In this document: one piece after another, positions 1 to 26,357 of the stretch
How the letters are laid out: the number at the start of each line of letters is the position of its first letter
Numbering within the stretch: the stretch's first letter is position 1
Notes under the pieces: generated by a model
What the model was told of the DNA's origin: nothing
The model's database searches: none
Seen by the model: only the letters and a program-made list of their open reading frames with translations
Made by a program: the position numbers and the translations under genes
Origin: Methanobacteriota archaeon
Lineage (GTDB): Archaea; Thermoplasmatota; JASEFT01; JAUWIS01
Assembly: GCA_030605245.1 (NCBI GenBank)
Contig: JAUWIS010000001.1
Location: forward strand, 1 to 26,357
Length of the DNA stretch: 26,357 bases
Direction: 5' to 3'

Positions 1-25
1 GATTGGTGTTAGGTATATTGTTGAC
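1..25. repeat. Terminal direct repeat, left copy (circular overlap)
   Basis: GATTGGTGTTAGGTATATTGTTGAC is identical to 26333-26357. Confidence 0.97.
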
Positions 26-173
26 AGTAGTGGTGATTGCAGACCATTGTAATGAGTGTGATGAGAGTTATAAATCGTGCAAGGAAGCATATTCCAATTG
101 TAAACTGAAAACAGGTGAGAACTGGCAAGATGCAATCGATATCAATTTCACTATTAATCAAGATACTGGCTAA
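1..173 (+). CDS. 3' part of junction-spanning 75-aa membrane-anchored Cys-containing protein (starts at 26278)
   Basis: After circularisation, ATG 26278 reads MRLFNKELLAAMILGSLFGLVLGILLTVVVIADHCNECDESYKSCKEAYSNC...QDTG* to TAA 171-173 with no stop. Confidence 0.8.
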   Translation, partial: LVLGILLTVVVIADHCNECDESYKSCKEAYSNCKLKTGENWQDAIDINFTINQDTG

Positions 174-318
174 AAACATCATATTTGGGATTATAATGTA
201 CAATATCATCAATACAGGGTACAGGTTACTTTGTCGAATTTATTATGACATACAGAAGTGGAGGTAAATTAATAGTTATAAACAGTTATATCAAAATATA
301 TAATTAAGGTATGGGAAA

Positions 319-1019
319 ATGATACAACAAAGACTGAAACCGTTGAGCATTAAAAGGGAAAGACCAGATTATCCACAGGTCAATTATGTAGATGATCGAG
401 GAGTCCAATGGATAGAACTCAATAGAGGATGTAAGCGGTTATGTCGTTTTTGTTGGGCTGATCCAAACTATAAGGTTTTTGATATTCCAAGGATAATTCG
501 GAATAAAGTCCAGATTATTGGAGAAAATGTAATGTTTGATCCTAATATTGAAAAGAAATTAAAGAAGCTTTCAGAAATAAAAGTCAATAACAAAGTAGTC
601 TATTATGGTCTGGGAAATGGATTCGATTATCGGCGTGTTACTCCAGAAATTGCCAAACTTGCAAGAGCTGCAAGGATAGGCAATATTAATAATAAAGGCA
701 ATTGGTACAAAGGAGTTAATCTTGCTTGGGATTTAGGGATAAATCAAGAGTATAAAGTTAAGAAAGCATTAAATTATTTTCTGAATGTTGGATATTATGC
801 CAACAGATCTAAAATATTTATACTGGTAAACTGGGAGATAACACTAAAAGAATGCCTGTATAAGTTTGAGAAGATCAAGGCAATGGGGCTAAGATAGATG
901 ATTGTACTTGGGAATGTACAAAAAGAAATTATATTCCTCTATATTGGGATTATCCAGAATATCGTAAGTTTAGGCATATGTGTAGAACACATAATATTAC
1001 ATTTAAGGGTAAACAATGA
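319..1019 (+). pseudogene. Radical SAM protein split by a -1 frameshift near 885-897
   Basis: CxxxCxxC motif (RGCKRLCRFC). Frame 1 stops at 897. The -1 frame continues KIDDCTWECTKRNYIPLYWDYPEYRKFRHMCRTHNYTFKGKQ* to TGA 1017-1019, overlapping the next ATG (ATGA). Confidence 0.75.
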
Positions 1020-1669
1020 GAGCTACAATATACGGTAGAGTATCAAAAGACGATAAGGAACAAGATCCTGAAAGACAATTTATCAAATGTAGAGATTATT
1101 GCAAACTACATGAACATGATGTGATGGGAGAATTTAAAGATTATATAACTGGCGACAGTACACCTTATGCAAGGGATGCGTTTTCTAAGATGATGGAATT
1201 AAAGCCAGAAGTTGTTATTGTATTCAGCATTGACAGGTTAAGCCGGCAACATCCAAACAAGATAATGTCATTATTAACTCAATTCAAAGATTCAGGTATA
1301 ATCATAGTTTCTATAACTGAAACACTTTTTAACATGGAATCGCCGTTTGCTGAACCATTACAATATTTTCTTACATGGTGGAATAACTATTTTTTAAAAA
1401 AACTCAAGGAAGATATTAAGTCCGGCATGGATAAAGCAAAACTCAATGGTGTACACATAGGCAGACCAAAATGTAAGTTCAATGAATACAGAGCATATCA
1501 ACTATTAATTATAGAAAAGAAGTCATTATCAGAGATAAGTAAGATACTTCAAGTTTCCAGGTCAACATTACACCGTTTCAAAAGGGTAGTGATAAAAAAC
1601 CCTAATTTATTTAAAAAACAACACCCTATCCCAAAACCAGATGGTTTTGGAACGAATAGAGAAAAATAA
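1016..1669 (+). CDS. Small serine recombinase (resolvase/invertase family) with C-terminal HTH
   Basis: N-terminal YGRVS catalytic motif, DRLSR motif, IKSGMDKAKLNGVHIGRP helix E, and C-terminal SLSEISKILQVSRSTLHR HTH. Confidence 0.93.
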   Translation: MRATIYGRVSKDDKEQDPERQFIKCRDYCKLHEHDVMGEFKDYITGDSTPYARDAFSKMMELKPEVVIVFSIDRLSRQHPNKIMSLLTQFKDSGIIIVSITETLFNMESPFAEPLQYFLTWWNNYFLKKLKEDIKSGMDKAKLNGVHIGRPKCKFNEYRAYQLLIIEKKSLSEISKILQVSRSTLHRFKRVVIKNPNLFKKQHPIPKPDGFGTNREK

Positions 1670-1760
1670 TAGAAAAACGCTTTTAAACAAAAAAGGCAGG
1701 GCAGTTTTTAAGTCAATTCGACAGAAGGGAATTGACCAGGCTATAAATCGCCGTCTTTGA
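1641..1760 (+). CDS. Possible 39-aa basic peptide ending inside the junction motif
   Basis: MVLERIEKNN...DQAINRRL*; its 3' end resembles that of ORF 12496-12633 (IINSSL*). Confidence 0.25.
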   Translation: MVLERIEKNNRKTLLNKKGRAVFKSIRQKGIDQAINRRL

Positions 1761-1761
1761 A
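1739..1761 (+). repeat. Inverted copy of the accessory-region junction motif
   Basis: GGCTATAAATCGCCGTCTTTGAA matches 14/16 to the minus-strand 12847-12868 copy, 17/20 to minus 12495-12514 and 12/12 to minus 13502-13513. Confidence 0.7.
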
Positions 1762-1764
1762 ACA

Positions 1765-1872
1765 ATGAGGATGATGAACATGGAATCAATACAAGAACGT
1801 GAAGAAAAACATCAAAAATGGATAACTGGTTGTCGTAAAGCATTCAAAGAATGTGAGGAACGAAAAAAGTAG
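1765..1872 (+). CDS. Hypothetical 35-aa protein
   Basis: Manual translation MRMMNMESIQEREEKHQKWITGCRKAFKECEERKK*; starts just after the motif. Confidence 0.4.
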   Translation: MRMMNMESIQEREEKHQKWITGCRKAFKECEERKK

Positions 1873-1914
1873 TGAGTAGATCTACCACGCCTTTTTTGTA
1901 ATTTATGAAGGATA

Positions 1915-2046
1915 ATGGCAAAATGCGAACATAATCGTATGGAATATTTTGGAATGAAAAGATTAATTGCTTGTGTAGATTGTGGAAAACATTGGCAATA
2001 TAATAGTATGGATAATTATTTTGTTCCGATAAATGAAGGGGTGTGA
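1915..2046 (+). CDS. 43-aa zinc-ribbon-like microprotein
   Basis: MAKCEHN...IACVDCGKHW: CxH plus CxxC; preceded by GAAGGA. Confidence 0.6.
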   Translation: MAKCEHNRMEYFGMKRLIACVDCGKHWQYNSMDNYFVPINEGV

Positions 2047-2546: not shown

Positions 2547-2843
2547 TTATTTTGACAGGAAAAACATCATCATTGAACCCATTGCCAGGATTAAGCATAT
2601 TATCAAACCAAGCACACTCATAAGACCTGACAGGAACGCGAATCCACCAATGAACATGATAAAAAAGCCAGTGAATAGCATAAACTCTTTGGCTTTATAA
2701 AAACTGAGGTTTATTATTACAATCGCACCTGAACATATCACTAGGAACAACCCAAACAACCCTTTCATAAGCCCATCATCAACACCCTGCATAACTTCAA
2801 GCGTGGTGTTTGCAGCTTTTAATATAGTGAGGTTGTAACTCAT
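2547..2843 (-). CDS. Multi-pass membrane protein, putative virion component
   Basis: Three hydrophobic segments and an N-terminal NLT/NTT sequon region; coupled to the upstream gene. Confidence 0.8.
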   Translation of the reverse strand: MSYNLTILKAANTTLEVMQGVDDGLMKGLFGLFLVICSGAIVIINLSFYKAKEFMLFTGFFIMFIGGFAFLSGLMSVLGLIICLILAMGSMMMFFLSK

Positions 2844-3304
2844 GCGTATATCCTCCCCATTAGTATAAGCAACACTGAAAGCACAAAGATGAAAAATAAG
2901 ATACCAAGCAACGTGAAAATGATATTATAAACTTGTTCAGCACCAATAATTTCCATTGTGGCTTGCATGATTTGCTGGAACGATATAAGATTCTGGCTTA
3001 TGAACACACCAATTTGATAAGTCAGACTGAAAAACCCAAACAACCCGCCGCCGGCGCTTTCTGTCACAGTCTGATTATAAAACTTGACAGTGATATTATC
3101 CATCTGCTCTTTTGTCTGATTTATGGTTGCGAATGCGCTATAAAGGCTTTTATTACCACCTTGCACATTATAATCAGTAAGATCTATTGGAACTTGATTT
3201 TCTGAGGCTAAGTGCATGAACAGGGAAAAAAAGCTAGTGAACACTAGAGCACCCATTATAAGGGCAACTATTGGCGTATGTAGTTGCATCTGTGCTCTTT
3301 TCAC
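2840..3304 (-). CDS. Membrane protein with class III (prepilin-like) signal peptide, putative minor virion protein
   Basis: MKRA|QMQL followed by a hydrophobic helix; NKS, NQT, NIT, NQT sequons; C-terminal TM. Confidence 0.8.
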   Translation of the reverse strand: MKRAQMQLHTPIVALIMGALVFTSFFSLFMHLASENQVPIDLTDYNVQGGNKSLYSAFATINQTKEQMDNITVKFYNQTVTESAGGGLFGFFSLTYQIGVFISQNLISFQQIMQATMEIIGAEQVYNIIFTLLGILFFIFVLSVLLILMGRIYA

Positions 3305-6108
3305 TCTTTACCCCTCCTTACCATATAAATCATCATGAATACAAAGACAGCCAGGAAATATAACCATCCAATATGAAACCCACTTATGAATCCGACAACT
3401 GAAACAGCGAGTATACCCATGAACATTATTATAACACTACCAGTTATTGTCGCAATACCCATTAATGCCAATGAACCTATAATGATAAGACTGAAAAATA
3501 TCCCTTCTTGAAGTAGTTGTGGTGCATTTTCAGTGATTATAACCCATATTGTGTTGAGGATATGATAACTGTTAGGTGTATTGGTATCAATCATTGCAAC
3601 AGCTTTATAATTTCCAATCCTAGACTTATCATACCTACAGGTCAGGGTAGCAGCCGTTGACAAAGTACAATTATAACAGATATTTTCAAGACCATCAGAA
3701 TTAATAAGATCAACTCTTAAACAGCCTTCACGAACAAGGTTTTGTGTATCTGTATACGTAAACCTAAAATAAGATAAGTTTCCGACAGTGACATTATCCA
3801 GGTTATAAAACGTGTTCCCATATTCTCGCCAACCCTCATATAAATCAGTTCGCAAGTTAAGAATATCTTGAGTATCAATAGAAAGGAAAGGGGTTGGGTC
3901 TGTTTCTTTTATGATGTTTCCAGTAACATCAATATAAATCATCTTATACCATACATCATAAAGCTCGACATATAACACAGCCTGACCTTCAAAGTTAGTC
4001 TGTGCCATCTGTACAGTCTTAAATTCGCTTGTTGTACCGCTCACATAATTTCTAAGCAGTTTTATTCTTATATTTATTGCAGGGTTGCTGTCCTGATCTA
4101 ACAAAGTATGAATAACACGCACCCCTACAGTATCATTCAACAAAAAGAGGTCAATATTTTGTGTGGTACTAGTATTAAGTGTGGCGTAATATGTTCTTGT
4201 ATAGTAGTTTGTAGCATAGTATCTTATTTCATATTCACCAAAAACCAAACCACTGATAAGCTGTTCACCAGTATTTGTGTTATGTATTTGTGATGTGTTG
4301 CCAGTGGTACTTATAATTTCCACATAAACTGTTGTTCCAGAAAGTTTAACTTGTGTTATTTCGTCATAGAATTGGAGAAAAACACCGGCAGAGGTTGCAT
4401 TAAGAACAACAACAACTGGCGTTTTATTAAGATAAAATGTGTCAGCGATTACAAAAAACCCAGACGCAGATCCAGACACTGTATAATTATTCTCAGGATC
4501 AAGCCAGAATGTTACATTATTAGTATTATTGGCGTATAAACTTTGATTACCGATTGTTGCAGTAAACTTTGATAGGAAAGTGCCGGAAGCGGTATCATTG
4601 ATTTTCACAGTCATGTTTGTTTGGATGATAAAGCTCACATTTACAGAATTATAGTTCAGACCGCCAAGAGAATCAAAAGCAATTTCGTGTGAGCTAGTCC
4701 AGATTTCAATATCATATTCATATTCATTAACCTTTATCACATTGTATAAGGCTTCTTTGTCAGCAAAATTTGCATCAAACCATATACCACCCATCCCATT
4801 GCTGCATGTGATATGTGCATTATAATCGGAATACCACATCTGTTTACAAGGATAATCAGCAGTGACAGTGAAAGTATACTTAAGACGCTCATCACCTTTC
4901 TTATCGAATTGGTAAACGGCAGAATGCCTATCACTCTTTTTCACGTCATAGAACTCTTTTAATTCTGTTTCACTATCTTTCAGTTTAATATCAAACTTAA
5001 TCCCACCCCACTCATCCGGCGATTTATAATTGATTTGATTTTCTTTTTCATCTTTGACAGGCTTAAAATCTTTGATTTTGTTATCTGTGTGTGCATCAGA
5101 AACCTCAAAGGTAACATAATATTTTCCGACAGACCACATACTCATATCAATACTCTGGTTCCATGTTCGTGTAGTATTCGGCGAATTATCTGCAACATAC
5201 TCAGTATACAACACACCCCCCGTGCTGTTTTTGATTGTTAGGTTAGTCTGGAACAAATAACTGTCTTGAGTTGAAGCATTAAACGTGAGAGTTCTGTTAG
5301 TGGTAAACCTTGTAGAGTTGTCAGATGCTGGATAGTTGACAGTAATAAATGGTTGTGAATTATCATAGATATATATAAAGACACCTGTGGAGCCATTGAG
5401 TCCGTCGCTCCGATTGCAAGAGACATAATAAAAATACTCCCCATCCAGAGACAGGCCCATCGTAAAATTAAGGGTAGTGTTTGCCGCCACATTGTCCGAA
5501 GTCAGATAATAAGTATCATTCACCGAGAGCGAACAATTCGCAACCATTGAGACATTATAAAGGACATCTAGGATTGTATTATTATGCGTCTCATTGGCTG
5601 GAGATATATGGTTAACTATAATCTCAGGGCTGGCGTTTGCTGCGCTTTCCGTAACTACTGCCAAGATTTCAAAATAATAATCTGTATAATTTATCCAATT
5701 ACTAGTCCCTCTATGCCAATTTATATTAACATCACCCTCTGGCAATCCTACAAGATTTTGATACTGTCGGTTATAATTTGCTCCACCATTATCACAAAGG
5801 ACAAAATATTGTAACCCTGCTGTAAGATTATAATTAAACCCTGTCGCATTGACACCACTAAAAAGTTTTTGCTGTAATAAATTCGCATCAGCATCGTATA
5901 GATATGCGTCCACGCAGCCACTCGCTGGGTGTTTTTCCATTGATATGAACATAACATCAAAGTTAGGTATTATTATCATACCTTCTTTATTAGATGTTCC
6001 ACTTGCCGAAGTCGGCAAGGTCGAGCTATGCATATCCTCAACTACCAAAGCACACACACTAGAAACTAGTAAGAATGACAAGATTGATATTATTATTATT
6101 TTTTTCAT
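3301..6108 (-). CDS. Large secreted beta-rich, Ig-like adhesin/spike protein with C-terminal membrane anchors
   Basis: Sec-type signal peptide, about 30 N-x-S/T sequons (manual count), T/S/N-rich beta-type segments and C-terminal hydrophobic helices. Confidence 0.8.
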   Translation of the reverse strand: MKKIIIISILSFLLVSSVCALVVEDMHSSTLPTSASGTSNKEGMIIIPNFDVMFISMEKHPASGCVDAYLYDADANLLQQKLFSGVNATGFNYNLTAGLQYFVLCDNGGANYNRQYQNLVGLPEGDVNINWHRGTSNWINYTDYYFEILAVVTESAANASPEIIVNHISPANETHNNTILDVLYNVSMVANCSLSVNDTYYLTSDNVAANTTLNFTMGLSLDGEYFYYVSCNRSDGLNGSTGVFIYIYDNSQPFITVNYPASDNSTRFTTNRTLTFNASTQDSYLFQTNLTIKNSTGGVLYTEYVADNSPNTTRTWNQSIDMSMWSVGKYYVTFEVSDAHTDNKIKDFKPVKDEKENQINYKSPDEWGGIKFDIKLKDSETELKEFYDVKKSDRHSAVYQFDKKGDERLKYTFTVTADYPCKQMWYSDYNAHITCSNGMGGIWFDANFADKEALYNVIKVNEYEYDIEIWTSSHEIAFDSLGGLNYNSVNVSFIIQTNMTVKINDTASGTFLSKFTATIGNQSLYANNTNNVTFWLDPENNYTVSGSASGFFVIADTFYLNKTPVVVVLNATSAGVFLQFYDEITQVKLSGTTVYVEIISTTGNTSQIHNTNTGEQLISGLVFGEYEIRYYATNYYTRTYYATLNTSTTQNIDLFLLNDTVGVRVIHTLLDQDSNPAINIRIKLLRNYVSGTTSEFKTVQMAQTNFEGQAVLYVELYDVWYKMIYIDVTGNIIKETDPTPFLSIDTQDILNLRTDLYEGWREYGNTFYNLDNVTVGNLSYFRFTYTDTQNLVREGCLRVDLINSDGLENICYNCTLSTAATLTCRYDKSRIGNYKAVAMIDTNTPNSYHILNTIWVIITENAPQLLQEGIFFSLIIIGSLALMGIATITGSVIIMFMGILAVSVVGFISGFHIGWLYFLAVFVFMMIYMVRRGKE

Positions 6109-6590
6109 CTTCCCGATTTAAATTTAGCGAATAATACGACAGTTCCAAGGAACGCCAACACTCCAAAGATAAAAGCCCAGTTATTAAGTAGGAAACCCAT
6201 TATTTGGAACTTACTGGCATCATCTACAACGCCGGCAGATGTTGAATAACTCCCATAAGTGTTTGAGAGGATTGCAATAGGAATAAGCATGAACCCTATA
6301 AGAATAACAACTATGAAATAAAAAGCAGGGTGTGTGTTAAGTACAAAGAATCCCGAAAAGATTGCCAGGACAAATAACACAAACATGGTAAGAAAAGCAT
6401 AATCCCATATGGTGTTGAATCTGCCGGCATTATCACTCATGATAGCTTTTGAGGCTGGCGAAGCATCACCATCAGCCCACCCTTCCCCAAACTCTCGCAT
6501 TATCTTAGAACCTGCAATTATTATAATGGCAACAGTGAACAGGATAATCCCAAATAGAAGAAAGTCTTGAACATACCCTCTTTTATTCAT
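6105..6590 (-). CDS. Multi-pass membrane protein with class III signal peptide, putative minor virion protein
   Basis: MNKRG|YVQD followed by a 20-aa hydrophobic stretch; three further TM segments. Confidence 0.8.
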   Translation of the reverse strand: MNKRGYVQDFLLFGIILFTVAIIIIAGSKIMREFGEGWADGDASPASKAIMSDNAGRFNTIWDYAFLTMFVLFVLAIFSGFFVLNTHPAFYFIVVILIGFMLIPIAILSNTYGSYSTSAGVVDDASKFQIMGFLLNNWAFIFGVLAFLGTVVLFAKFKSGR

Positions 6591-6769
6591 CTTTTTTTTG
6601 ATTTGAACCTCCCATATATTATTTTTGATAAGTATTCAGCATTTTCAAGGATTCGTTCACTGTCACGTAATGTTTGACTCATACCCTGCTTTCTATCATC
6701 ACTGATTGACTTAATCTTATTATAAAATGTGTCAGGCACCCGCATTAGTCGTGAATTCTTCCTATTCAT
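6587..6769 (-). CDS. Ribbon-helix-helix-like DNA-binding protein
   Basis: SRLMRVPDTFYNKIKSIS...MSQTLRD strand-helix-helix pattern. ATG 6769 overlaps the upstream stop region. Confidence 0.55.
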   Translation of the reverse strand: MNRKNSRLMRVPDTFYNKIKSISDDRKQGMSQTLRDSERILENAEYLSKIIYGRFKSKKR

Positions 6770-8534
6770 TTCCTTTACCCCCACCAATCCATCCGAGCCG
6801 TACCAGGAACCCAAACATAAGTCCCAGGAACCACATAGCAGTGATAAAGCTCATTATTAATATGATTGCTGTGTAAAATGCAGCCATGCTTGGCAACAGC
6901 ATTGAATCGCCCATCTCTGCCAGGTGTTGCACTATATTAGCGACTATCACCAGGAGCCAGCCAGACACAATCCAGACAAGATATTTCATGATAGGTATTT
7001 CCTGACCGTTAGCATCTTTGAAAAAGAAAAACTCAAGCCTATCAGCCAACTTCAACAGTACAAAGATAACACCAAGTATCAATAACCCCATAGTAAGATA
7101 AAGATTATTTTCTGTTGGGATTGTGCAAGGTTCATGAGTTGACACGTTATAAGGTGCTTGATTGATATCACAATCCGAGCTTAAATTAGTGAGAGCGCAA
7201 CATGACGCATAATTCCTGTCAGTGTACCCACGCTCTCTTGAGAATGCTGTACCGTTCCATGCACAAACTGATAATGAGGGGATAATATCTTGTGTGCAAT
7301 AGTTGCAGCTTAACCATGTACCATTATCACCAGGCACATAATCATGTGTACCGCAATTATGCGCATCTGTATAATACTTTTGATATGAATTGTTCACCAT
7401 GCACGGTGTATACTGTACTATCCAATCCTCTGTACAACCTTCATTGTATCCAATCTTCACACCAAGAAGCTGTGCGGTTTCGTTAAGGATTATTGTAGAA
7501 AACATTGATTTATACTGGAAATATCTGGCTGTGTAGTTGAATGTGAGTAGAGGGAAATTGAACGGGTTAAATGTACTATTTGTGCAATCGCTTATGTTAC
7601 AAGCTCTGACACTAATATTCAGTTTAGCAACGCCTCTATGATACATATTTTCAATGTCTTGCTGCTCTAAAACCTTATGAAATATAAAAGCCTCATCAAT
7701 TGTGCCATTTAATGGTACTATACCAAAAGTAAATAACACACCAAGTTTAGTATTATTGACAGTTGATTTTGTAAGTACACCACTATCCACATCATTTTGC
7801 AATATACCATTCACATAAAGTTGCATATGTGTGCCATTGTAAACACAAACAGCATGATACCATTCATCCTGTACAGGGACAAGATTAGAACTTGTATAAA
7901 CACCAAACCCCCATCCACAAGATACATTTTCAGTTGTACCAGCTTGTAGATTATAACCGTCAGGAATTCCTTGCATTCTTGAAATGATCCCTGCATTACT
8001 ATTAACACTGTTAAGTTTGAACCATGCACCATAAGACACGTAATCAACAAAGTCCATTGGCGTACTTTCAACAATATCAACATATCTAAAAAAAGTACCA
8101 TCAAACCCAAGCCCTGTCTTAATCACTCCTGGTTCTGAATAATATCCAGCGTTGTATGTACCGTTATTGTTTGAACCAGAATAATCCTGTATCACACCTG
8201 AACTCTCATCCAAGTGCATGAGAAGCACATTATCACTCATATTAACAGCATAAGGATCTATTATGTCCTGGCTTTGATAATTTGGTAATTCTCTTCCATA
8301 TATGCTACTGTTCCAGGTCATATTAAGCCATTGCGTACTGCTTTTATTACTGTCGTATATCTGGCTATAGTATTCACCTGTCCAGTATGTCTTATTAAGT
8401 TGAACATACCCTCCAAGGTTCAATGACGTGTTAAAGTAAGTGCCATTGAATGCAATACCACTTGTACTAAAATAATCAGCATTCACATTACATAAAACTA
8501 AAACAAAAATAAAAAAGAGTATATAGTTTCTCAT
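6762..8534 (-). CDS. LamG / concanavalin-A-like domain adhesin with Cys-rich region and C-terminal TMs
   Basis: LLMHLDE, WYHAVCVYNGTHMQLYVNG and GTIDEAFIF LamG motifs; signal peptide; about 20 sequons; three C-terminal TMs. Confidence 0.88.
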   Translation of the reverse strand: MRNYILFFIFVLVLCNVNADYFSTSGIAFNGTYFNTSLNLGGYVQLNKTYWTGEYYSQIYDSNKSSTQWLNMTWNSSIYGRELPNYQSQDIIDPYAVNMSDNVLLMHLDESSGVIQDYSGSNNNGTYNAGYYSEPGVIKTGLGFDGTFFRYVDIVESTPMDFVDYVSYGAWFKLNSVNSNAGIISRMQGIPDGYNLQAGTTENVSCGWGFGVYTSSNLVPVQDEWYHAVCVYNGTHMQLYVNGILQNDVDSGVLTKSTVNNTKLGVLFTFGIVPLNGTIDEAFIFHKVLEQQDIENMYHRGVAKLNISVRACNISDCTNSTFNPFNFPLLTFNYTARYFQYKSMFSTIILNETAQLLGVKIGYNEGCTEDWIVQYTPCMVNNSYQKYYTDAHNCGTHDYVPGDNGTWLSCNYCTQDIIPSLSVCAWNGTAFSRERGYTDRNYASCCALTNLSSDCDINQAPYNVSTHEPCTIPTENNLYLTMGLLILGVIFVLLKLADRLEFFFFKDANGQEIPIMKYLVWIVSGWLLVIVANIVQHLAEMGDSMLLPSMAAFYTAIILIMSFITAMWFLGLMFGFLVRLGWIGGGKGNE

Positions 8535-13987: not shown

Positions 13988-13999
13988 CTTTCCATCCAA

Positions 14000-14526: not shown

Positions 14527-14527
14527 C

Positions 14528-15679: not shown

Positions 15680-15689
15680 TCTCTTAACC

Positions 15690-16337: not shown

Positions 16338-16363
16338 AAAAAAGAGCAAAAAACCAAGATAAA

Positions 16364-18785: not shown

Positions 18786-19181
18786 GTGCAATCCACAAGA
18801 CCAAAAGCCAGCACGTTTGATACAGGCTGGGATGCCCGGAACGAGTTTGTACGTGAACTGGTATTCAGAGTACACCTATGGTTAAATGGCAACCCACAAG
18901 ATATAAAGGGATGGTTTGAGGCATTGCGTGACTTTTACAGCGTAGCATGCCCATTCATTGAAGATAGAGAAGGAATACAAGAAAAGATACAGGAGATTAA
19001 GATATTGATACACGGCAACCATACAACAGTCACAACACACTCTCGCAACTTAGACATAGCTTATGAAAAGATACGGACACTGTTTGAGATTATGCATATT
19101 GCTGTATTCAGAGCCGGCATCTATCTGCCGATATATGATAAAGAAGATCCAGGGGAAGCAGTCACAGATATAAGGTTATAG
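18786..19181 (+). CDS. Helical hypothetical protein (start uncertain)
   Basis: ORF track with GTG start; ends 1 nt before the MTase gene. Confidence 0.65.
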   Translation: MQSTRPKASTFDTGWDARNEFVRELVFRVHLWLNGNPQDIKGWFEALRDFYSVACPFIEDREGIQEKIQEIKILIHGNHTTVTTHSRNLDIAYEKIRTLFEIMHIAVFRAGIYLPIYDKEDPGEAVTDIRL

Positions 19182-19182: not shown

Positions 19183-19830
19183 ATGGAAAAAATCAAAGTG
19201 CTTAACTTGTATGCAGGGATTGGAGGTAATAGAAAACTCTGGCCTGATAAAGAGATAGAGGTTACTGCTGTAGAAATTAATGATAAGATTGCAACAGTGT
19301 ATAAAGATTTGTTTCCAAACGATAAAGTGGTTGTTGCAGATGCGCACCAATATCTTTTGGAACATTATAAAGAGTTTGATTTCATCTGGAGCAGCCCGCC
19401 ATGTCCTACGCATTCAGGTACAAACCATTTCCTTAATGCTCAAGGTGTTGTAAGGTACCCGGACATGAAACTGTATCAGGAAATAATATTCATCAAAGCT
19501 TGGTTTCACGGTCTTTATTGTGTAGAGAACGTGATACCATATTATGAACCGCTCCTTAATCCATACATCAGTGAAAGACATTGCTTCTGGTCAAATTTCC
19601 ATATATCAAACCGTAAAAAAGATTTGAGTATATCAATCACAAACTCCAGAGCCACTACAAGAAGAACAAGAAAGCAATACCTTAAATCGCTTGAATTGTA
19701 TCATGGGTTCGATTTGTCAAAATATAAACTTTATGATAAAAGACAAGTGTTAAGGAATTGTGTTCATCCTAAATTGGGAAAGTATATCTGGGATTGTGCA
19801 TTCAAGGAGAAACAAGATAAACTCGTATAA
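19183..19830 (+). CDS. DNA cytosine-C5 methyltransferase
   Basis: Motif I LYAGIGG, motif IV SPPCPTHS, motif VI ENV. Confidence 0.92.
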   Translation: MEKIKVLNLYAGIGGNRKLWPDKEIEVTAVEINDKIATVYKDLFPNDKVVVADAHQYLLEHYKEFDFIWSSPPCPTHSGTNHFLNAQGVVRYPDMKLYQEIIFIKAWFHGLYCVENVIPYYEPLLNPYISERHCFWSNFHISNRKKDLSISITNSRATTRRTRKQYLKSLELYHGFDLSKYKLYDKRQVLRNCVHPKLGKYIWDCAFKEKQDKLV

Positions 19831-20750
19831 TGGTAAAGATACAACCAGGGAACCAGGATTATTACATGGATGGTTACTTGAAAAGTAACATGGATATAAT
19901 CAAAGATTTAATTAATGACGCAGACCATGATTTTGTAGGTATAGTGGATGGGTTCGAGGGCGTAGGAAAATCCGTACTGGCAATGCAGATTGGCTATTAT
20001 GTTGACCCATCCCTCACACTTGATAGGGTATGCTTCACATCCACAGAGTACAGGGATGCGGTCAAGAAAGCTAAGAAAGGACAGTGTGTGATATATGATG
20101 AGGCAATAACCGGCGCATTCAATCGTGAGGCTATCCAACAGATGAATGTTATCCTCATTAAGATGATGGCGCAAGTCAGACAAAAGAACCTGTTTATGCT
20201 TTTAGTGTTACCATCTTTCTTTGACCTTGACAAGAACCTGGCGCTGTGGCGTTCCAAGTTCCTGGTTCATGCAGTATACGGTAAAAGGTTTCAGCGTGGA
20301 TATTTCAAGTTTGCAAACCTGAACAAGAAGCAAGACATATATGTTAAAGGTCAAAAGACATACTACTATCCAGCAAGGGATAGCGCCTGGAACTTTAAGG
20401 GTAGGTTCACCAAACATTACACAATGCCTGAACGAGCATACAGGAATAAAAAGTCGCAGAGCTTTGAAGCTTCGGATTATCGGGTAGTCAGTGCCAGGAA
20501 AGCCAGGTCGCAGCGTGACAGCCTTATAACCATATTACTGAATATAGGATTTAAGCAGGCAGAGGTAGCATACTTCTCAGACTTATTCAATGAGGGCTTA
20601 ACCCAGCGACAAGTGGGGAATGTTGCACTCAAGTTTAAGAAATTAGAAAACAGTATAGACATTAATATACTTAAATCCATTAAGGATAAGGTTAAAGGTT
20701 TAAAGAGCCAGGAAAAGGTAAAAGATACAGCGCCACCACCAATACAATGA
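19830..20750 (+). CDS. Zot/pI-like P-loop ATPase with C-terminal HTH-like extension (putative morphogenesis ATPase)
   Basis: Walker A GFEGVGKS, Walker B VIYDE, and RQKNLFMLLVLPSFFDLDK segment typical of Zot-like viral ATPases. Confidence 0.85.
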   Translation: MVKIQPGNQDYYMDGYLKSNMDIIKDLINDADHDFVGIVDGFEGVGKSVLAMQIGYYVDPSLTLDRVCFTSTEYRDAVKKAKKGQCVIYDEAITGAFNREAIQQMNVILIKMMAQVRQKNLFMLLVLPSFFDLDKNLALWRSKFLVHAVYGKRFQRGYFKFANLNKKQDIYVKGQKTYYYPARDSAWNFKGRFTKHYTMPERAYRNKKSQSFEASDYRVVSARKARSQRDSLITILLNIGFKQAEVAYFSDLFNEGLTQRQVGNVALKFKKLENSIDINILKSIKDKVKGLKSQEKVKDTAPPPIQ

Positions 20751-20911
20751 CAGACTGCAAACATAATAAGACAGAGTTGCATTTTCATTACAGGAAAAAT
20801 TATTCTCATGGAAAAATGTCACAACAAAAACCTTATGCACCGGCAAAACTTGTCAATGAACATTGTATTGCATGCAAAAAGATAATAAGTAAATGGAGAC
20901 CAGGAAGATGA
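20747..20911 (+). CDS. 54-aa zinc-ribbon-like microprotein
   Basis: MTDCKH...HCIACKK; ATGA overlaps at both ends. Confidence 0.55.
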   Translation: MTDCKHNKTELHFHYRKNYSHGKMSQQKPYAPAKLVNEHCIACKKIISKWRPGR

Positions 20912-23172
20912 TTGAAACAGATAAAAGATACTCTAATTTTTTAAGACAGAAGTTAATTTTAGAAAAAGAGTATGGGTTTGAAAGTTTAAACCTTCCAGAT
21001 AAATTATTTGATTTTCAAAAAGCAATAACTCAATGGGCAACTAAAAGAGGTAAGGCTGCTATTTTTGCAGATACAGGATTGGGTAAGACATTTATGCAAG
21101 TAGCATGGGCTGACCAAGTAGTTAAACATACACAAAAACAAGTATTGATAATTGCTCCTCTTTGTGTAGCTGAACAGACAGTAAAGGAATCTAAAAAGAT
21201 AAATATCAAAGTTGAATATGCTAGAGAATATAAGGATGAGGATATATTAATCACTAATTATGAGATGGTACACTACTTTAAGGAATCAATCCAAGATAAT
21301 AAATTCTCAGGAATTGTATTAGATGAATCCTCAATATTGAAACATCAAGATTCAAAAACAAGATCTAAATTAATAGAACTATCTAAACATATCCCTTATA
21401 AATTATCTTGTACTGCAACACCAAGTCCAAACGACTTTATGGAATTAGGATCGCAGGCAGAGTTTTTAGGGATAATGGATTCTGTTGAAATGTTAAGTTT
21501 ATTTTTTACGCATGATGCAAGCCAGACACAAAAATGGAGATTAAAAGGTCATGCGCAAGATGAGTTTTGGAAATGGCTGAGTTCATGGTCAGTATATATT
21601 AAAAAACCATCCGATTTAAATTTTTCAGATGATGATTTCATTCTTCCAAATCTATGTATGGAAGAAGTTAAAATTGGTGGTTTCATTGACTGTCAATTTA
21701 AGACCATGCAAGACTTGCAAAGAGCAAAAAAGAAAACACTAAAAGAAAGAGTGAAAAAATGCTCACAAATAGTAAACAATAGTCAAGACCAATTCTTAGT
21801 CTGGTGTCAAAGAAATGACGAATCAAAAGAGCTACACAGATTAATTCCTGATTCTGTAGAAGTGAAAGGTAGTGATTCAATTGAAGACAAGAAGGATAAA
21901 ATTATGTCTTTCACAAATGGAAATGTAAGGGTAATGATAACAAAACCAAAGATAGCAGGATTTGGCATGAACTGGCAACATTGTAATAAGATGGCTTTTG
22001 TGGGTTTGACAGACTCATACGAACAAATATACCAGGCAATAAGAAGATGCTGGAGATTCGGTCAAAAAAAACAAGTGAATGTCTACTTTGTTGTTCATTC
22101 TGTAGAGGGTAGAATATTACAGAACATAAAAAGAAAAGAACGACAATCAGAGATTATGGCTTCAAAGTTAATCAAGCACATGGCTAATTTTCAAAAAAAA
22201 CAAGTGCTAGAGATGAATAGAGAAAAGGCAATTTATAAAACAAATATGAAAGAAGGGACTAATTGGAAATTATATCTTGGTGATTGTGTAGAAGTGACAA
22301 AAAAACTTAAAGATGAAAGTATTGATTATTCAATTTTCTCTCCCCCTTTTGCTAGCCTATACACTTATTCAAATAGCGATAGAGATATGGGGAATAACAA
22401 AACATATGAGCAATTTTGGAATCATTTTAATTATTTTATTCCACAGTTGTTTAGGGTGCTTTGTTCTGGAAGACTAGTCTCGGTTCATTGTATGAACTTA
22501 CCAACTAGTAAGGTTAGGGATGGATATATTGGGATTAGGGATTTTAGGGGAGATATAATAAGAGCATTTCAAAATATGGGTTTTATTTATCATAGTGAGG
22601 CTGTAATCTGGAAGGATCCTGTAGTTGCAATGCAACGAACCAAAGCTAGAGGATTATTATGGAAACAAATCAAGAAAGACTCTTCTAAATGCAGACAGGG
22701 AATCCCTGATTATTTATTAACTTTCAGGAAACCAGGCGAAAATAAAAAACCCATAGCACATACAGCTGATGAGTTTCCAGTTTCAAAATGGCAACATTAT
22801 GCATCTCCTTGTTGGACTGATATTAGACAGTCAAATACACTAAATGTAAAATTAGCAAGAGAAAAAAGAGATGAAAGACACATATGCCCATTACAATTAG
22901 ATTTAATTTTTAGAGCTATTGACTTATGGAGTTCTAAAGGAGATACAATACTATCGCCATTCGTAGGAATTGGGAGCGAGCTATTTGTTGCATTACAAAC
23001 TGGAAGAAAGGCTATAGGCATAGAACTTAAAGAATCATATTTCAAAATAGCTAGCGAGAATTTATCAATAGCTATGGGGATGAGTAAACTAGATTATGGG
23101 AACAACAAGGTAAGAATTAATCCACACATGGCAAAAGGAACTTATGGTAATTCAAAATTGAATGATTTTTAA
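20893..23172 (+). CDS. SF2/SNF2-like helicase fused to an amino (N4/N6) DNA methyltransferase (start may be 20908)
   Basis: ADTGLGKT, LDESS, TATP and GMNWQ helicase motifs; C-terminal SPPF and SPFVGIGS methyltransferase motifs. Confidence 0.92.
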   Translation: METRKMIETDKRYSNFLRQKLILEKEYGFESLNLPDKLFDFQKAITQWATKRGKAAIFADTGLGKTFMQVAWADQVVKHTQKQVLIIAPLCVAEQTVKESKKINIKVEYAREYKDEDILITNYEMVHYFKESIQDNKFSGIVLDESSILKHQDSKTRSKLIELSKHIPYKLSCTATPSPNDFMELGSQAEFLGIMDSVEMLSLFFTHDASQTQKWRLKGHAQDEFWKWLSSWSVYIKKPSDLNFSDDDFILPNLCMEEVKIGGFIDCQFKTMQDLQRAKKKTLKERVKKCSQIVNNSQDQFLVWCQRNDESKELHRLIPDSVEVKGSDSIEDKKDKIMSFTNGNVRVMITKPKIAGFGMNWQHCNKMAFVGLTDSYEQIYQAIRRCWRFGQKKQVNVYFVVHSVEGRILQNIKRKERQSEIMASKLIKHMANFQKKQVLEMNREKAIYKTNMKEGTNWKLYLGDCVEVTKKLKDESIDYSIFSPPFASLYTYSNSDRDMGNNKTYEQFWNHFNYFIPQLFRVLCSGRLVSVHCMNLPTSKVRDGYIGIRDFRGDIIRAFQNMGFIYHSEAVIWKDPVVAMQRTKARGLLWKQIKKDSSKCRQGIPDYLLTFRKPGENKKPIAHTADEFPVSKWQHYASPCWTDIRQSNTLNVKLAREKRDERHICPLQLDLIFRAIDLWSSKGDTILSPFVGIGSELFVALQTGRKAIGIELKESYFKIASENLSIAMGMSKLDYGNNKVRINPHMAKGTYGNSKLNDF

Positions 23173-23194: not shown

Positions 23195-23782
23195 ATGATA
23201 GACAACCAAAACCAAAACCAAAACCAAAACCCAAACCAGGAACAGCACGAATATGAAACACAGATGTATAAACCAATGACTGACGATTATAATACTGTCA
23301 GGTTACGTCTTGATCCAACACCCACGCTTGACATGCTCCGGCATAGTTTACTCAGGGAATTCTATAGTGAGAAAGATGAGAAATGGTTGAACCCTAGGAA
23401 ACTCAGACCAATGCTAACACAAGAGGGAGTGGAAGATTTAATGATAGATCTCTGTGCGAGAATGTCAGTAGACAAGGTACTTGGCAATATCAAAGACATG
23501 GAATTCAATAACATCTTAAGAGAGATTGGCGAATCTATCTTAGGGTTTATCATGTTCAACTCTGAGAAATATGAGATACAGGAAGCAGATGTTGAACGTG
23601 TGTTCTATATAACAATGCACAGTGTAAGAATATTCTTAAGCAGAGCCAGGGGTGGTGTTGAAAATATCCATATCACGAAACAGATGCAGTACAGGGAAGT
23701 CAAGACAGCTAGGGATATGACACAACCACAACAGACACAGGCACCATTTGGTAAGTTTTTCGGTGGTGGTGGTAGGCAATGA
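23195..23782 (+). CDS. Hypothetical protein with N-terminal NQ repeat
   Basis: ORF track; (AACCAA)4 at 23204-23227. Confidence 0.8.
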   Translation: MIDNQNQNQNQNPNQEQHEYETQMYKPMTDDYNTVRLRLDPTPTLDMLRHSLLREFYSEKDEKWLNPRKLRPMLTQEGVEDLMIDLCARMSVDKVLGNIKDMEFNNILREIGESILGFIMFNSEKYEIQEADVERVFYITMHSVRIFLSRARGGVENIHITKQMQYREVKTARDMTQPQQTQAPFGKFFGGGGRQ

Positions 23783-23892: not shown

Positions 23893-24050
23893 TGCCAAAC
23901 TGTGAAGGGTGTAAGGAGAATCTGCAAATAGCTTATAATTGGCAGAAAATGGGTTATTGTGTGGCTACAAGTCCATCAAAACCTGAATGTTACCCATTCG
24001 GCAGGCACCATTATTCAGTCTGGATAGTAGACGATGAGGGGAGAGAATGA
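23889..24050 (+). CDS. 53-aa Cys-rich microprotein
   Basis: PNCEGC...YC...EC; ATGA coupling at both ends. Confidence 0.55.
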   Translation: MMPNCEGCKENLQIAYNWQKMGYCVATSPSKPECYPFGRHHYSVWIVDDEGRE

Positions 24051-24787
24051 CAGAGCTTGAATTTATTATAATGATAGTATTGATTTTCATGGTAATGCCT
24101 GTTTTAATGGTATTCTTGTTGATATGGTGGTTATGGAACAACCCTGTAAATGTTCAGATCAGCGAAAAAAAGGAAGGTGTATACTTAAGCAGCGGTGGCA
24201 AGTATAGGATTCGTGATGGTAAGCTGTACCCTATATGGAGCTTTTTCACAAAGATAAGCCGGCAATGGTTAGCTTATGATGTAATCATAAGCCATAAGAC
24301 TATCGAGAAAGCACCATTTAAGCTGTTTGGTGGTGTTTTCACCTTTGGCAAGTCAAAGACTATAAAGAAAGTGTACACTAAGCGATTGGCTGTAGATTAC
24401 GCAGATATCAAAGATTATCTGATAATCACTGAGGGGTTCCCGATAATCGGCGCAAAACTCACTCTCAAGCTTAAACGTGAAAAATCGCAACTTGTTCCCT
24501 GGCTGCCAAAGATAGAAGCTGACAGTAAAGGTGTGACAACAAATACAAGGATGGTCAAGATTGACAACTTACGAGAACAGCTATATGAAACAACCAAGAC
24601 ACCATTAAGCAAAAATGATATGATGCTTAAGGTTGTATTGCCTATGAGCTTAGTCTTGTTGGCTATTGTCCTTATCATATTTTTTCCAAAGATATACGAA
24701 GCAGTGATGGCAGGGAGCCAATCAGCCTTCGACCAAAGCAAGAGCGCCGTATTTGATTGGCTGCAACAAAACCCACCACAAGGTTAA
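24047..24787 (+). CDS. Two-TM membrane protein, paralog A
   Basis: N- and C-terminal TMs around a basic soluble domain. Confidence 0.8.
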   Translation: MTELEFIIMIVLIFMVMPVLMVFLLIWWLWNNPVNVQISEKKEGVYLSSGGKYRIRDGKLYPIWSFFTKISRQWLAYDVIISHKTIEKAPFKLFGGVFTFGKSKTIKKVYTKRLAVDYADIKDYLIITEGFPIIGAKLTLKLKREKSQLVPWLPKIEADSKGVTTNTRMVKIDNLREQLYETTKTPLSKNDMMLKVVLPMSLVLLAIVLIIFFPKIYEAVMAGSQSAFDQSKSAVFDWLQQNPPQG

Positions 24788-24812
24788 AGTTAAACTAGGA
24801 GGTAAACTAAAA

Positions 24813-24947
24813 ATGGGATTTTTAGACATGTTGAAAGAACCAGAAAAGAAAGATAATACAGACTATTGCACATGTGATGAGATTTGTCCACATTGTGGCA
24901 AACCAAAGAGGAAGAAAAAGTATAATCCAGTGACAGGGTTTCAATAA
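24813..24947 (+). CDS. 44-aa Cys-rich microprotein
   Basis: YCTCDEICPHCG; GGAGGT upstream of ATG 24813. Confidence 0.65.
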   Translation: MGFLDMLKEPEKKDNTDYCTCDEICPHCGKPKRKKKYNPVTGFQ

Positions 24948-24953
24948 CGAAAA

Positions 24954-25085
24954 ATGGTAAGATCAATCAAGATAACAAAAGTCAATGATAGGCTTTATTA
25001 TTTAGATTCAGAGATTGAAAACAGAACTTGTCTATCTTATAGGAGCATGATACACAATTTCCATAAGTGGCTCAAGAGGGGATAA
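24954..25085 (+). CDS. Hypothetical 43-aa protein
   Basis: Fills the gap between neighbouring genes. Confidence 0.4.
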   Translation: MVRSIKITKVNDRLYYLDSEIENRTCLSYRSMIHNFHKWLKRG

Positions 25086-25091
25086 AGAACA

Positions 25092-25751
25092 ATGGTAAAA
25101 GGAACAGATTATTTGGAAATGCTCAATTTCAAGAGTATAAATATCTTCGGTGCGACAGGTAATATAACATCAATCATAAACATATCTTTGTGGGTTTTAA
25201 TAATATCCGCTTTGATAGTCATGATTATCAAGTTCATATCACACAGAGTAATGGTTGAAATACTGGAGAAAGTTAAGGGGGGTTATGTTTCAAAGGGTGG
25301 CAGATACGCTGTAGTGTATGATAGAAAAAACGATTTGGCATACTTAAGACCAATGTGGGGAAAAGAGAGATTGCCAAACTTTCCAAGTGAAGCGTTCCAA
25401 AAAACCAAAGGTGTACCATTCATCGGCATTAAACGGGAACTTAGCCTTATAAAAGTCAACAAATACAGTTACAAGGCAAGCCTGCCGGAACCAGGCACAG
25501 CAAAGACAGGCTCTATAAAATACCATGATACACTGAGTTGGATGTTTCTTGAACAGCGCCGGAAATTCCTGAAAAAGATAAGTAAAGAAAACATCTACTA
25601 TGTTTTAATGGTTATGGCACCAATAATAGTAATCCTGGCAAGTATTGGTATGGTAAGCTGGGTTATTTATGTTCATGCCAGACTAGATGCAAACTATGCC
25701 GCATATCTAGGGGAACTATTGAAGATTGCACAAGGAGCGACAGGGAAATGA
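25092..25751 (+). CDS. Two-TM membrane protein, paralog B
   Basis: Same topology as 24047-24787, with a shared post-TM motif. Confidence 0.8.
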   Translation: MVKGTDYLEMLNFKSINIFGATGNITSIINISLWVLIISALIVMIIKFISHRVMVEILEKVKGGYVSKGGRYAVVYDRKNDLAYLRPMWGKERLPNFPSEAFQKTKGVPFIGIKRELSLIKVNKYSYKASLPEPGTAKTGSIKYHDTLSWMFLEQRRKFLKKISKENIYYVLMVMAPIIVILASIGMVSWVIYVHARLDANYAAYLGELLKIAQGATGK

Positions 25752-25975
25752 CACCCTTAGAAAGACATAAACATATCAGTTTAATGGGGGAACCACCACA
25801 GTATGTTGAATGGTACATAAAAGAAGATGTTGAAAAGCATTACCTTGACAAACAACGAGTGAAGGGTAGTATTGAATGGTTAAAAACAGAGATTAGGAAT
25901 AGTGATATGGTTCATTATAAATGGTTGCTTCCATTAATAGATGAAGCGTTTAAACAATTTGGATTAAACAAATGA
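25748..25975 (+). CDS. Hypothetical 75-aa protein
   Basis: ORF track; ATGA coupling. Confidence 0.65.
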   Translation: MTPLERHKHISLMGEPPQYVEWYIKEDVEKHYLDKQRVKGSIEWLKTEIRNSDMVHYKWLLPLIDEAFKQFGLNK

Positions 25976-26094
25976 GCAAGAAAAAACATTATCCAAGATG
26001 TTGCGGTAAACCAATGCGAAACATCCAAACCAAAGTGAAAGACATACACTATAGCTATATGTTATGTGAAAATTGCGGGAGGAAGATTTTATGA
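25972..26094 (+). CDS. 40-aa zinc-ribbon microprotein
   Basis: RCCGKPM...LCENCG; ATGA coupling at both ends. Confidence 0.65.
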   Translation: MSKKKHYPRCCGKPMRNIQTKVKDIHYSYMLCENCGRKIL

Positions 26095-26294
26095 CATATC
26101 CAAAATCAAAATTTAAGTTATTGATTGAAATTATTGAATCTCCAGAAGGAAAACATTATGTTCAGGTTGATATGGTTGAAAATGATGTAATTATGAAAGA
26201 AATAGGACTAGCCATATACACTATGAAACAGATTGAACAGAAGTTAATTGATAGGCAATGGGATAAAGAAGAGGGATATGAGATTGTTCAATAA
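26091..26294 (+). CDS. Hypothetical 67-aa protein
   Basis: ATG 26091 overlaps the upstream TGA. Confidence 0.65.
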   Translation: MTYPKSKFKLLIEIIESPEGKHYVQVDMVENDVIMKEIGLAIYTMKQIEQKLIDRQWDKEEGYEIVQ

Positions 26295-26357
26295 AGAGTT
26301 ACTTGCAGCCATGATACTGGGATCATTATTTGGATTGGTGTTAGGTATATTGTTGAC
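26278..26357 (+). CDS. 5' part of junction-spanning membrane protein (continues at the window start)
   Basis: ATG 26278 follows GAGGG; the frame is open across the terminal repeat. Confidence 0.8.
   Translation, partial: MRLFNKELLAAMILGSLFGLVLGILL
26333..26357. repeat. Terminal direct repeat, right copy
   Basis: Identical to 1-25. Confidence 0.97.

Follow-up and report, generated by a model that had tools for sequence, protein, structure and literature searches.

A 26.3-kb contig from a cold-seep archaeal assembly as the probable genome of an uncultivated virus with a candidate alpha-helical hairpin capsid protein

Introduction

The viruses with an alpha-helical hairpin capsid are the spindle-shaped viruses: the Fuselloviridae, Halspiviridae, Thaspiviridae and the wyrdviruses. 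Both halspiviruses and thaspiviruses have linear genomes. Metagenomic spindle viruses have been identified by a gp16-like ATPase marker (PMC9796341), and metagenome-assembled genomes (MAGs) of these viruses have been called on a hairpin capsid protein together with a gp16-like ATPase (PMC9796341; bioRxiv 10.1101/2021.07.29.453957; bioRxiv 10.1101/2025.02.15.638363). Wyrdviruses and DNSV-1/2 are deep-sea sediment or DPANN-associated, with genomes of 15-22 kb (bioRxiv 10.1101/2021.07.29.453957; bioRxiv 10.1101/2025.02.15.638363); DNSV-1/2 of Nanohaloarchaeota have 21-22 kb, an AAA+ ATPase and two capsid paralogues (bioRxiv 10.1101/2025.02.15.638363). Beyond hypersaline systems, little is known of the viruses that infect DPANN archaea, and the same is true of cold-seep archaeal viruses in general. 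The DNA analysed here is contig JAUWIS010000001.1 of assembly GCA_030605245.1, whose whole length of 26,357 nucleotides (nt) is called the window. It is probably the whole genome, or nearly so, of a double-stranded DNA (dsDNA) virus of uncultivated archaea with an alpha-helical hairpin capsid, and it shares with the halspivirus His1 and the fusellovirus SSV1 an ATPase family and the architecture of the capsid candidate. It would belong to a widespread lineage that probably infects ultra-small (DPANN) archaea.

Results

Hairpin protein proposed as capsid

The candidate major capsid protein is an 89-amino-acid (aa) two-helix hairpin membrane protein, encoded on the forward strand (11986..12255) and divergent from the structural operon. 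The hydropathy of the 11986-12255 product shows two hydrophobic segments (12-42 and 62-94) and its AlphaFold2 model two helices (H9-38 and H48-86; predicted local distance difference test, pLDDT, 72), in agreement with the small two-helix hydrophobic protein described in the initial annotation. Its 40 close homologues show 46-91% identity, mostly above 60%, which makes it the most conserved gene of the element, compared with 35-68% across ATPase homologues and with adhesins that are barely alignable. By an exhaustive profile search the family comprises 1,415 cluster representatives (E <= 1e-3), of which 335 also pass E <= 1e-10; almost all are 70-180 aa long. Three relatives (L012, L025 and L059) show tandem hairpin paralogues; fuselloviruses, wyrdviruses and DNSV-1/2 have two capsid paralogues too. 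The architecture is that of mature SSV1 VP1 and VP3 and of His1 VP21: a transmembrane (TM) helix, a loop of about 25 aa containing a sequon, a second TM helix initiated by proline, and a short basic C-terminus. By ESM features, the protein is a neighbour of a cluster annotated as PF06281 VP1_VP3 (0.88, 180 shared features), and a weak lead (E 0.8) points to the chain named "major capsid protein" in PDB 7ro2. The ESM Atlas neighbours are mostly labelled viral; the shape search of the Atlas with the hairpin model returned only generic helical hairpins and unnamed "viral" clusters, and the Foldseek search against the PDB was uninformative because the fold is a simple helical hairpin.

In a few members of the family the N-terminal helix gives matches to Arch_flagellin or Pilin_N (E 0.006-0.1), which would fit KKG-type leaders but are no demonstration of prepilin processing. 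In its predicted fold the 89-aa protein is not a pilin, since the model contains only the hairpin and the globular domain is absent; the ordinary type IV pilin fold, named beforehand, together with clustering among plasmids, as an outcome that would refute the spindle-virus reading, was not seen in the model.

ATPase and conserved ATPase block

The window encodes a 306-aa P-loop ATPase of the His1 gp16/SSV1 B251 family (19830..20750, forward strand), with a C-terminal helical region resembling a winged helix-turn-helix (wHTH), which is the candidate morphogenesis or packaging ATPase. It shows Walker A and Walker B motifs and lacks a TM segment (AlphaFold2 pLDDT 84). More than 390 metagenomic homologues were found, on contigs of at most 26 kb for all among the matches listed. 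Six protein families of the window were compared by hhalign with the proteins of His1, SSV1 and HRPV-1, and only the link between the ATPase and gp16 was recovered: a profile of 30 ATPase sequences aligned with His1 gp16 (ORF16) with a probability of 96.5% (E 7e-10, 114 columns), a result which was reproduced, and the alignment spans Walker A through Walker B and further. PHROG 5484, which includes SSV1 B251 (2e-103) and His1 gp16 (6.5e-65), was matched by 29 of the 30 family members; direct hhalign of the family with B251 alone was not significant, and with HRPV-1 VP8 the probability was 0.2. The ATPase is the sole sequence link to known spindle-shaped viruses.

Foldseek matched the ATPase model to generic RecA/ASCE folds, the named matches including the Zot N-terminal domain, STIV2 B204, ATV ORF286 and inovirus Zot models; against the Zot N-terminal domain 2r2a the probability was 1.0 and the target TM-score 0.46. 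PF05707 is present in 11-17% of the members of its ESM neighbours, and there was no direct match to Pfam Zot. Because of these fold matches, "Zot-like", the initial wording, describes the structure fairly; the family that can be identified as closest is gp16/B251.

In the relatives the ATPase is part of a conserved block: immediately upstream of it is a protein of about 140 aa, and the other members are one of about 190 aa and a single protein or a pair of about 220-250 aa, with a TM helix at either end. In the window its members are all on the forward strand: a 131-aa protein (18786..19181), 33% identical to that of L010 and with positional counterparts in L005, L006, L008, L024 and L059; the ATPase; a 195-aa protein (23195..23782), 41% identical to that of L010 and with homologues in L008, L016, L017, L024 and L059; and two paralogues of 246 and 219 aa (24047..25751), each with TM helices at both termini. 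The block is contiguous in L010, whereas in the window it is broken up by two methyltransferase genes. A strong ATPase homologue (2.3e-57) adjoins a serine recombinase gene within a chromosomal contig (218 kb) of an archaeon that has a small genome and 46% GC (L060/L061, G431:C24:50000-89000). No capsid-family gene was found near this locus, which belongs to a different, integrated class of elements sharing the ATPase-recombinase pair.

Structural operon and related loci

Comparison with 15 related loci gave a common plan: one or more hairpin genes divergent from an operon encoding a large basic protein, one or two sequon-rich anchored glycoproteins, a four-TM protein and two small TM proteins. 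Synteny is kept across L009, L010, L012, L024, L025 and L059. The last of these (G532:C10) has 17,135 bp, 28% GC and a 55-nt terminal overlap, and contains the full module in the same order.

In the window the structural operon is on the reverse strand and is headed by the gene of a 1069-aa strongly basic protein (8642..11851) with 18% lysine plus arginine and a poly-proline stretch near the C-terminus; it has no cysteines, TM segments or sequons. Large basic proteins of 600-1,300 aa occupy the same position in L006, L008, L009, L012, L024 and L059, and similarity in sequence, no more than weak, was found in L012, L016 and L017. A word-indexed search of 5.8 billion proteins matched only its own virus, and the ESM Atlas gave nothing. 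From composition and position alone, a role in condensing the DNA, or as an internal protein of the virion, is proposed for it. In L006 the large basic protein (L006:3196-6366) shows an HEFTH (HExxH) motif which the window counterpart does not have, so the large proteins at that position may not all be homologous.

Two genes of the operon encode large exported proteins, both with a signal peptide and a C-terminal multi-TM anchor. The 590-aa glycoprotein (6762..8534) shows a Laminin_G_3 (ConA-like lectin) domain (Pfam 2.3e-16), a cysteine-rich region and three C-terminal TM helices, and contains 22 N-x-S/T sequons where 7.3 are expected from composition (z 6.4). The 935-aa protein (3301..6108), a candidate receptor-binding adhesin, contains 35 sequons against 14.4 expected (z 6.2), and its C-terminal part is conserved in L008, L016-L018 and L059. 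The sequons, two- to three-fold above composition in both proteins, agree with the sequon-rich adhesins reported initially; the excess is confined to exported proteins, cytoplasmic proteins not being enriched. The two glycoproteins are candidate functional analogues of terminal-fibre or adhesin proteins. Between their genes lies that of the 161-aa four-TM protein (6105..6590), 53% identical to that of L012 and with homologues in L018, L024, L025 and L059. At the N-terminus this protein is similar to the capsid candidate (MNK[KR]GY.QD, then a hydrophobic helix), and iterated hidden Markov model (HMM) searches fuse the two families; the resemblance may be due to a shared ancestry of the first helix or to biased composition. 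The operon continues with a 154-aa protein (2840..3304) with TM helices at the N- and C-terminus and four sequons, and ends with a 98-aa two-TM protein (2547..2843) with three sequons; their positional counterparts in L059 are at 4335-4775 and 4772-5071, respectively.

Some relatives are integrated. L009 and L013 share 2,840 bp at 99.86% identity with the episome-like L010 and then diverge beside a tyrosine integrase gene, which is next to the capsid gene in L009-L011 and L013. At the junction (L009:5323 / L010:2840) the shared part ends ...GGTTAAGGCCCAT, beyond which one continues into host DNA and the other into viral DNA; the integrase, of 265 aa, is encoded about 1 kb inside this junction. 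The integrated relative L013 is on a contig of 112,362 bp (G401:C5; CAYVNN010000005.1) with a uniform 29.6% GC and an open reading frame (ORF) of 4,105 aa, and no tRNA gene was found on this 112-kb contig. Neither the ATPase nor the hairpin protein had tblastn matches in the INPHARED phages or the PLSDB plasmids. In IMG/VR the ATPase profile matched four entries and the single ATPase sequence none.

Genome ends and layout

The first 25 nt of the window are identical to the last 25 (1..25 and 26333-26357, a direct repeat), and no longer overlap was found; this repeat is taken to be an overlap left by the assembly of a molecule that is circular or terminally redundant, and removal of one copy leaves 26,332 bp of unique sequence. 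An ORF of 75 aa on the forward strand (26278..26357, continuing to 170) reads in frame over the join and encodes one TM helix and a cysteine-rich tail, so that both the terminal repeat and the through-reading ORF noted initially were found again. The genes form two arms, divergent at about 16 kb and convergent at about 1.7-2.1 kb; the cumulative GC skew is lowest at 15-17 kb, and neither the gene strand nor the GC skew is interrupted at the join. Scans of the window for tRNA genes and Rfam families were both empty.

The word-indexed protein search led to a second assembly of the same element, NODE_575 (L062), with 26,314 bp and a coverage of 4.8, which is 99.92% identical to the window across 20,790 bp. 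The 16 differences are mostly A/C or G/T transversions, which at about 5x coverage suggests sequencing damage or errors and not real alleles. One of them changes codon 318 of the 8642-11851 ORF (10898-10900) from glycine to a stop, and in the gene calls of NODE_575 the giant basic protein appears as two pieces of 317 and 721 aa. In the join region (window 1-17 and 26301-26357), NODE_575 shows a shorter, different sequence with stops in the frame of the join-crossing ORF, which is possibly a second allele of the N-terminus of the small cysteine-rich membrane protein, or contig-end junk. The source run is a cold-seep metagenome, and its Logan contigs cover the window at only about 4-8x.

Host of the element

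The window is the longest contig of an archaeal MAG of 1.03 Mb and 69% completeness. The phylum of this MAG shows, in 400 sampled genomes, sizes up to 3.8 Mb, closed genomes of 1.8-1.9 Mb, and mcrA in 61 genomes of five families only. The capsid family gave only chance-level matches in these 400 genomes, while ATPase-family homologues were found in 15 of them (best 1.6e-49). The capsid family is present in 3 of 401 genomes of the small-genome, DPANN-type phylum that holds the integrated relative; one of the three is G532, whose contig C10 is L059. About 40 of the 400 genomes sampled from this phylum were listed; they are archaeal and have 0.6-1.7 Mb, and the five tested carry ribosomal protein S8e. 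One of its contigs, of 218 kb, carries S8e and, at 68 kb, an ATPase homologue (8.7e-58), with a serine recombinase gene present and the capsid gene not. Because of integration and repeated co-occurrence in that phylum, the family is tied to DPANN-type archaea.

In a pattern scan, the sole species-representative genome with the element was a MAG labelled "Methanosarcinales" by NCBI, in which the copy is integrated. Methanosarcinales were rejected as host, since this genome (1.6 Mb) has no mcrA, the contig has 29.6% GC and the genomes of the phylum range from 0.6 to 1.7 Mb; the label "uncultured Methanosarcinales archaeon" looks wrong and the genome looks DPANN-type.

Replication module and other genes

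Pfam and PHROGs scans covered the 21 largest ORFs of the window (at least 88 aa, plus one 65-aa helix-turn-helix (HTH) protein). They gave no match to an HK97 or double jelly-roll (DJR) capsid, portal, terminase, A32-type packaging ATPase or polymerase, which concurs with the initial failure to recognise HK97 capsid, portal, terminase and polymerase genes, and no domains of conjugative or mobilisable plasmids (relaxase, type IV secretion system ATPases, plasmid Rep).

The divergent strand switch, at the minimum of the cumulative GC skew, contains six iteron-like copies of (A/G)AAA(A/G)GGTTG(C/T)AAAA (16361..16685, forward strand) and is the candidate origin. After the repeats comes the gene of a 313-aa winged-HTH protein (16428..17369, forward strand; the true start is probably internal) with weak matches to HTH_11, TrmB and MarR, which is conserved in L005, L016, L017 and L023 and is the candidate iteron-binding replication initiator. 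No polymerase, primase or HUH endonuclease is encoded in the window, and iteron-wHTH initiation with host replication proteins is therefore proposed. On the other side of the switch, the reverse strand (12295..15920) shows about 15 small ORFs, encoding zinc-finger-like proteins, an HTH protein (14186-14383) and small TM proteins, none of them conserved in related loci; these are probably early and regulatory genes.

The remaining genes are on the forward strand. A 192-aa radical-SAM-like protein with a CxxxCxxC motif (319..897; PHROG 9298, 8.6e-8; weak Pfam Radical_SAM), with a homologue in L006, is regarded as auxiliary. A serine recombinase of the resolvase/invertase type (1016..1669; Pfam Resolvase 8.7e-20, PHROG 125/95) is encoded at the convergence of the arms, and has homologues in L016, L017, L024 and G431. 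Two methyltransferase genes flank the ATPase gene. The upstream one encodes a 215-aa short C5-cytosine methyltransferase-like protein (19183..19830; PHROG 363), which matches Pfam DNA_methylase over the N-terminal 75 positions only. Iterative HMM search found the short form also in L016, and a 219-aa look-alike with an N-terminal FSGxG was seen by eye in L059 (L059:5580-6239), so the 215-aa protein may be a conserved short form and not a broken gene. The downstream one encodes a 759-aa SNF2-type helicase fused to an N6/N4 DNA methyltransferase (20893..23172; Pfam, PHROGs), and is inserted within the conserved ATPase block.

Discussion

Nature of the element

The reading of the window as the genome of a virus with a hairpin capsid has to be set against several results which weigh against it. 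The size, topology, loop sequon and gene duplication of the hairpin protein stand with the VP1-like capsid of the initial annotation, but its homology by sequence or profile does not: hhalign of the hairpin profiles (24 and 52 members) against His1 VP21 and SSV1 VP1/VP3 gave probabilities of 0.6-6%, with templates that were single sequences, which a distant relationship could escape, and none of the 24 or 52 members matched Pfam PF06281. The adhesins and the other block proteins showed no counterpart by hhalign in the His1, SSV1 and HRPV-1 proteomes (HRPV-1 VP4 was not included), the adhesins giving probabilities below 1% against SSV1 VP4 (C792) or His1 VP27. In IMG/VR the capsid-profile search found none of the family, a result that, with the empty INPHARED and PLSDB searches, agrees with the little-described lineage supposed at the outset. 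Since homology of capsid and adhesin to spindle-virus proteins was not shown, the virion shape is proposed by analogy; a spindle shape in particular would be less certain than a hairpin-capsid virus. Of the spindle-shaped type first assigned, the homology of the ATPase to gp16/B251 and the VP1/VP21 architecture hold, but not homology of capsid and adhesin. The element would work in the manner of spindle-shaped or extruded archaeal viruses; one of its genes is demonstrably homologous to His1 and SSV1, and the sequence tests of capsid and adhesin fail. The ATPase alone is no proof of a virus, since gp16-like ATPases with a C-terminal winged helix are also found on the PL6 family of haloarchaeal plasmids (PMC5974055). 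Those plasmids, the plasmid-like iteron and wHTH module, the missing recognised capsid fold and the failure of the IMG/VR pipelines to call most relatives as viral would all suit an integrative plasmid that is not viral, or a plasmid-vesicle element derived from a virus but without true virions. This is unlikely: conjugation, partition and plasmid Rep genes were not found in the scans, PLSDB had a match for neither protein, the ESM Atlas neighbours carry mostly viral labels, and the high conservation of the hairpin protein, its duplication and its linkage to a large operon of exported proteins form the pattern of a morphogenetic module. A pleomorphic enveloped virus resembling pleolipoviruses, in which a vesicle would carry the two anchored glycoproteins and the small TM proteins would be internal, with no spindle lattice, is as improbable as a plasmid. 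Both large glycoproteins have a signal peptide and a C-terminal TM anchor like the VP4 spikes of pleolipoviruses, several small TM proteins and an NTPase stand alongside as in the pleolipovirus core, and nothing in the data fixes the virion shape; against this, the ATPase is clearly like His1 gp16 and unlike HRPV-1 VP8, the hairpin protein is unlike VP3, and the window is larger than the genome of HRPV-1 (7,048 bp), the one pleolipovirus compared.

Within the preferred reading of a hairpin-capsid virus, topology and host are to be judged apart. The genome is very likely circular, a conclusion that rests on the 25-nt overlap, the ORF reading through it, the continuity of strand and skew, and the evidence from the family (the relative with a 55-nt overlap and the integrating relatives). 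The "complete circular" genome annotated initially keeps its overlap and ORF, but closure is without independent confirmation because NODE_575 breaks at the same spot and the Logan contigs of the source run include no piece bridging the join. The match of NODE_575 to the window ends at position 18, with the divergence inside the repeat (17/18), and is followed by 31 unrelated-looking nt. This shared break, the coverage of only about 5x and the linear genomes of halspiviruses and thaspiviruses would be explained by a linear or incompletely assembled genome, in which the 25-nt repeat is not a circular junction. There is little chance of this, as neither a protein-primed polymerase nor inverted terminal repeats were found in the window, the repeat is direct and crossed in frame by an ORF with strand and skew continuous, L059 has its own overlap, and the recombinase-mediated integration of relatives requires a circular form. 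The host is judged, somewhat more probably than not, to be a DPANN archaeon, a link that rests on the relatives; the DPANN host first suggested gains support from the relatives in the DPANN-type phylum, but not from the KKG/KRAQ-type leaders on which it had been based. The archaeon of the contig's own bin is a clearly less probable host. The phylum of the MAG is not DPANN and is probably Thermoplasmatota, with which it is most consistent, the window was binned with this MAG at a similar GC (36.2% versus 37.1%) with a tetranucleotide correlation of 0.89, and the ATPase homologues of the phylum point the same way. On the other side, the capsid family rises above chance only in the small-genome phylum, and the window is the third most atypical by tetranucleotides among the 76 MAG contigs of at least 5 kb, binning alone being weak evidence. 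Neither a CRISPR array nor a spacer match to the window was found in the MAG, so that within this MAG the spacer matching proposed as a check gave no link. A blastn-short comparison of the window with the 179 remaining MAG contigs gave no shared sequence. The assignment of the window to its bin is probably a binning artefact or due to co-abundance.

Proposed life cycle and significance

In the infection cycle proposed for a hairpin-capsid virus, the wHTH protein would bind the iterons and recruit the host replisome, while the methyltransferases would shield viral DNA from restriction and the recombinase would integrate the genome or resolve dimers. The 1069-aa basic protein would condense the DNA, the hairpin protein would accumulate in the host membrane, and the ATPase would drive release by budding or extrusion without lysis. 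Attachment would be mediated by the glycoproteins, which the host would N-glycosylate. It is also conceivable, although rather doubtful, that the hairpin protein is no diverged VP1/VP21 but an independent recruitment of an archaeal class-III-signal membrane helix, similar to the N-terminus of pilins and archaellins and matured by the host prepilin peptidase, in a large, globally distributed and unclassified family or higher taxon of DPANN viruses whose DNA is packaged by the lineage-specific, strongly basic protein of about 1,000 aa. If this were true, it would be a second, convergent route to a spindle or extruded virion type.

The window would provide a full-length reference genome for a lineage abundant in metagenomes and largely missed by virus catalogues. 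The marker set formed by the hairpin protein, the large basic protein, the four-TM protein, the adhesin and the block of the gp16-like ATPase could serve the mining of sediments and the linking of viruses to ultra-small archaea. Host prediction can be led astray by an NCBI taxon label and by a bin assignment alike, as this case illustrates.

Comparison with known virus groups

The window shows with Halspiviridae (His1) a homologous gp16 ATPase of nearly the same length (306 versus 308 aa) with a C-terminal helical, DNA-binding-like region, a small two-TM capsid-type protein divergent from neighbouring structural genes, signal-peptide proteins with C-terminal anchors and many CxxC mini-proteins. 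The differences from His1 are a genome of about double the size, a direct terminal overlap where His1 has inverted terminal repeats, the lack of a protein-primed family B polymerase, a capsid candidate with no detectable homology to VP21, the presence of the giant basic protein and of a serine recombinase, and a non-halophilic setting. The direct repeat, and the absence of a polymerase from the Pfam and PHROGs scans, separate the window from Thaspiviridae as well.

With Fuselloviridae (SSV1) the window shares a circular dsDNA genome and integrating relatives, an ATPase in the same PHROG as B251, the VP1/VP3-like order of TM helix, sequon loop, TM helix and short basic tail, and capsid paralogues in relatives; the basic DNA-binding structural protein VP2 may have a functional analogue in the 1069-aa protein. 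It differs in that direct hhalign to B251 is not significant, homology to PF06281 and VP4/C792 was not found, the recombinase is a serine recombinase and not an SSV-type tyrosine integrase, and the host is mesophilic and non-crenarchaeal.

Pleolipoviridae (HRPV-1) have in common with the window membrane-anchored, glycosylated spike-like proteins, small membrane proteins, an NTPase and the non-lytic release proposed for it; they differ in the ATPase (0.2 against VP8), in the hairpin protein (0.1 against VP3) and in the genome, the window being several times larger. Compared with the Zot/pI ATPases of the Tubulavirales type, the ATPase of the window matches the fold of the Zot N-terminal domain, but the TM segment and a direct Pfam Zot match are absent.

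Wyrdviruses and DNSV-1/2, compared by their descriptions, have capsid proteins that are His1-like by HHpred, unlike that of the window with the profiles built. They resemble it in one or two hairpin capsid genes, a TM-less ATPase, an adhesin, a conserved block of unknown function and variable replication modules. The DPANN elements of Wu et al. 2024 may overlap with the family described here, which is probably a new family-level lineage in which the giant basic protein is an unusual addition.

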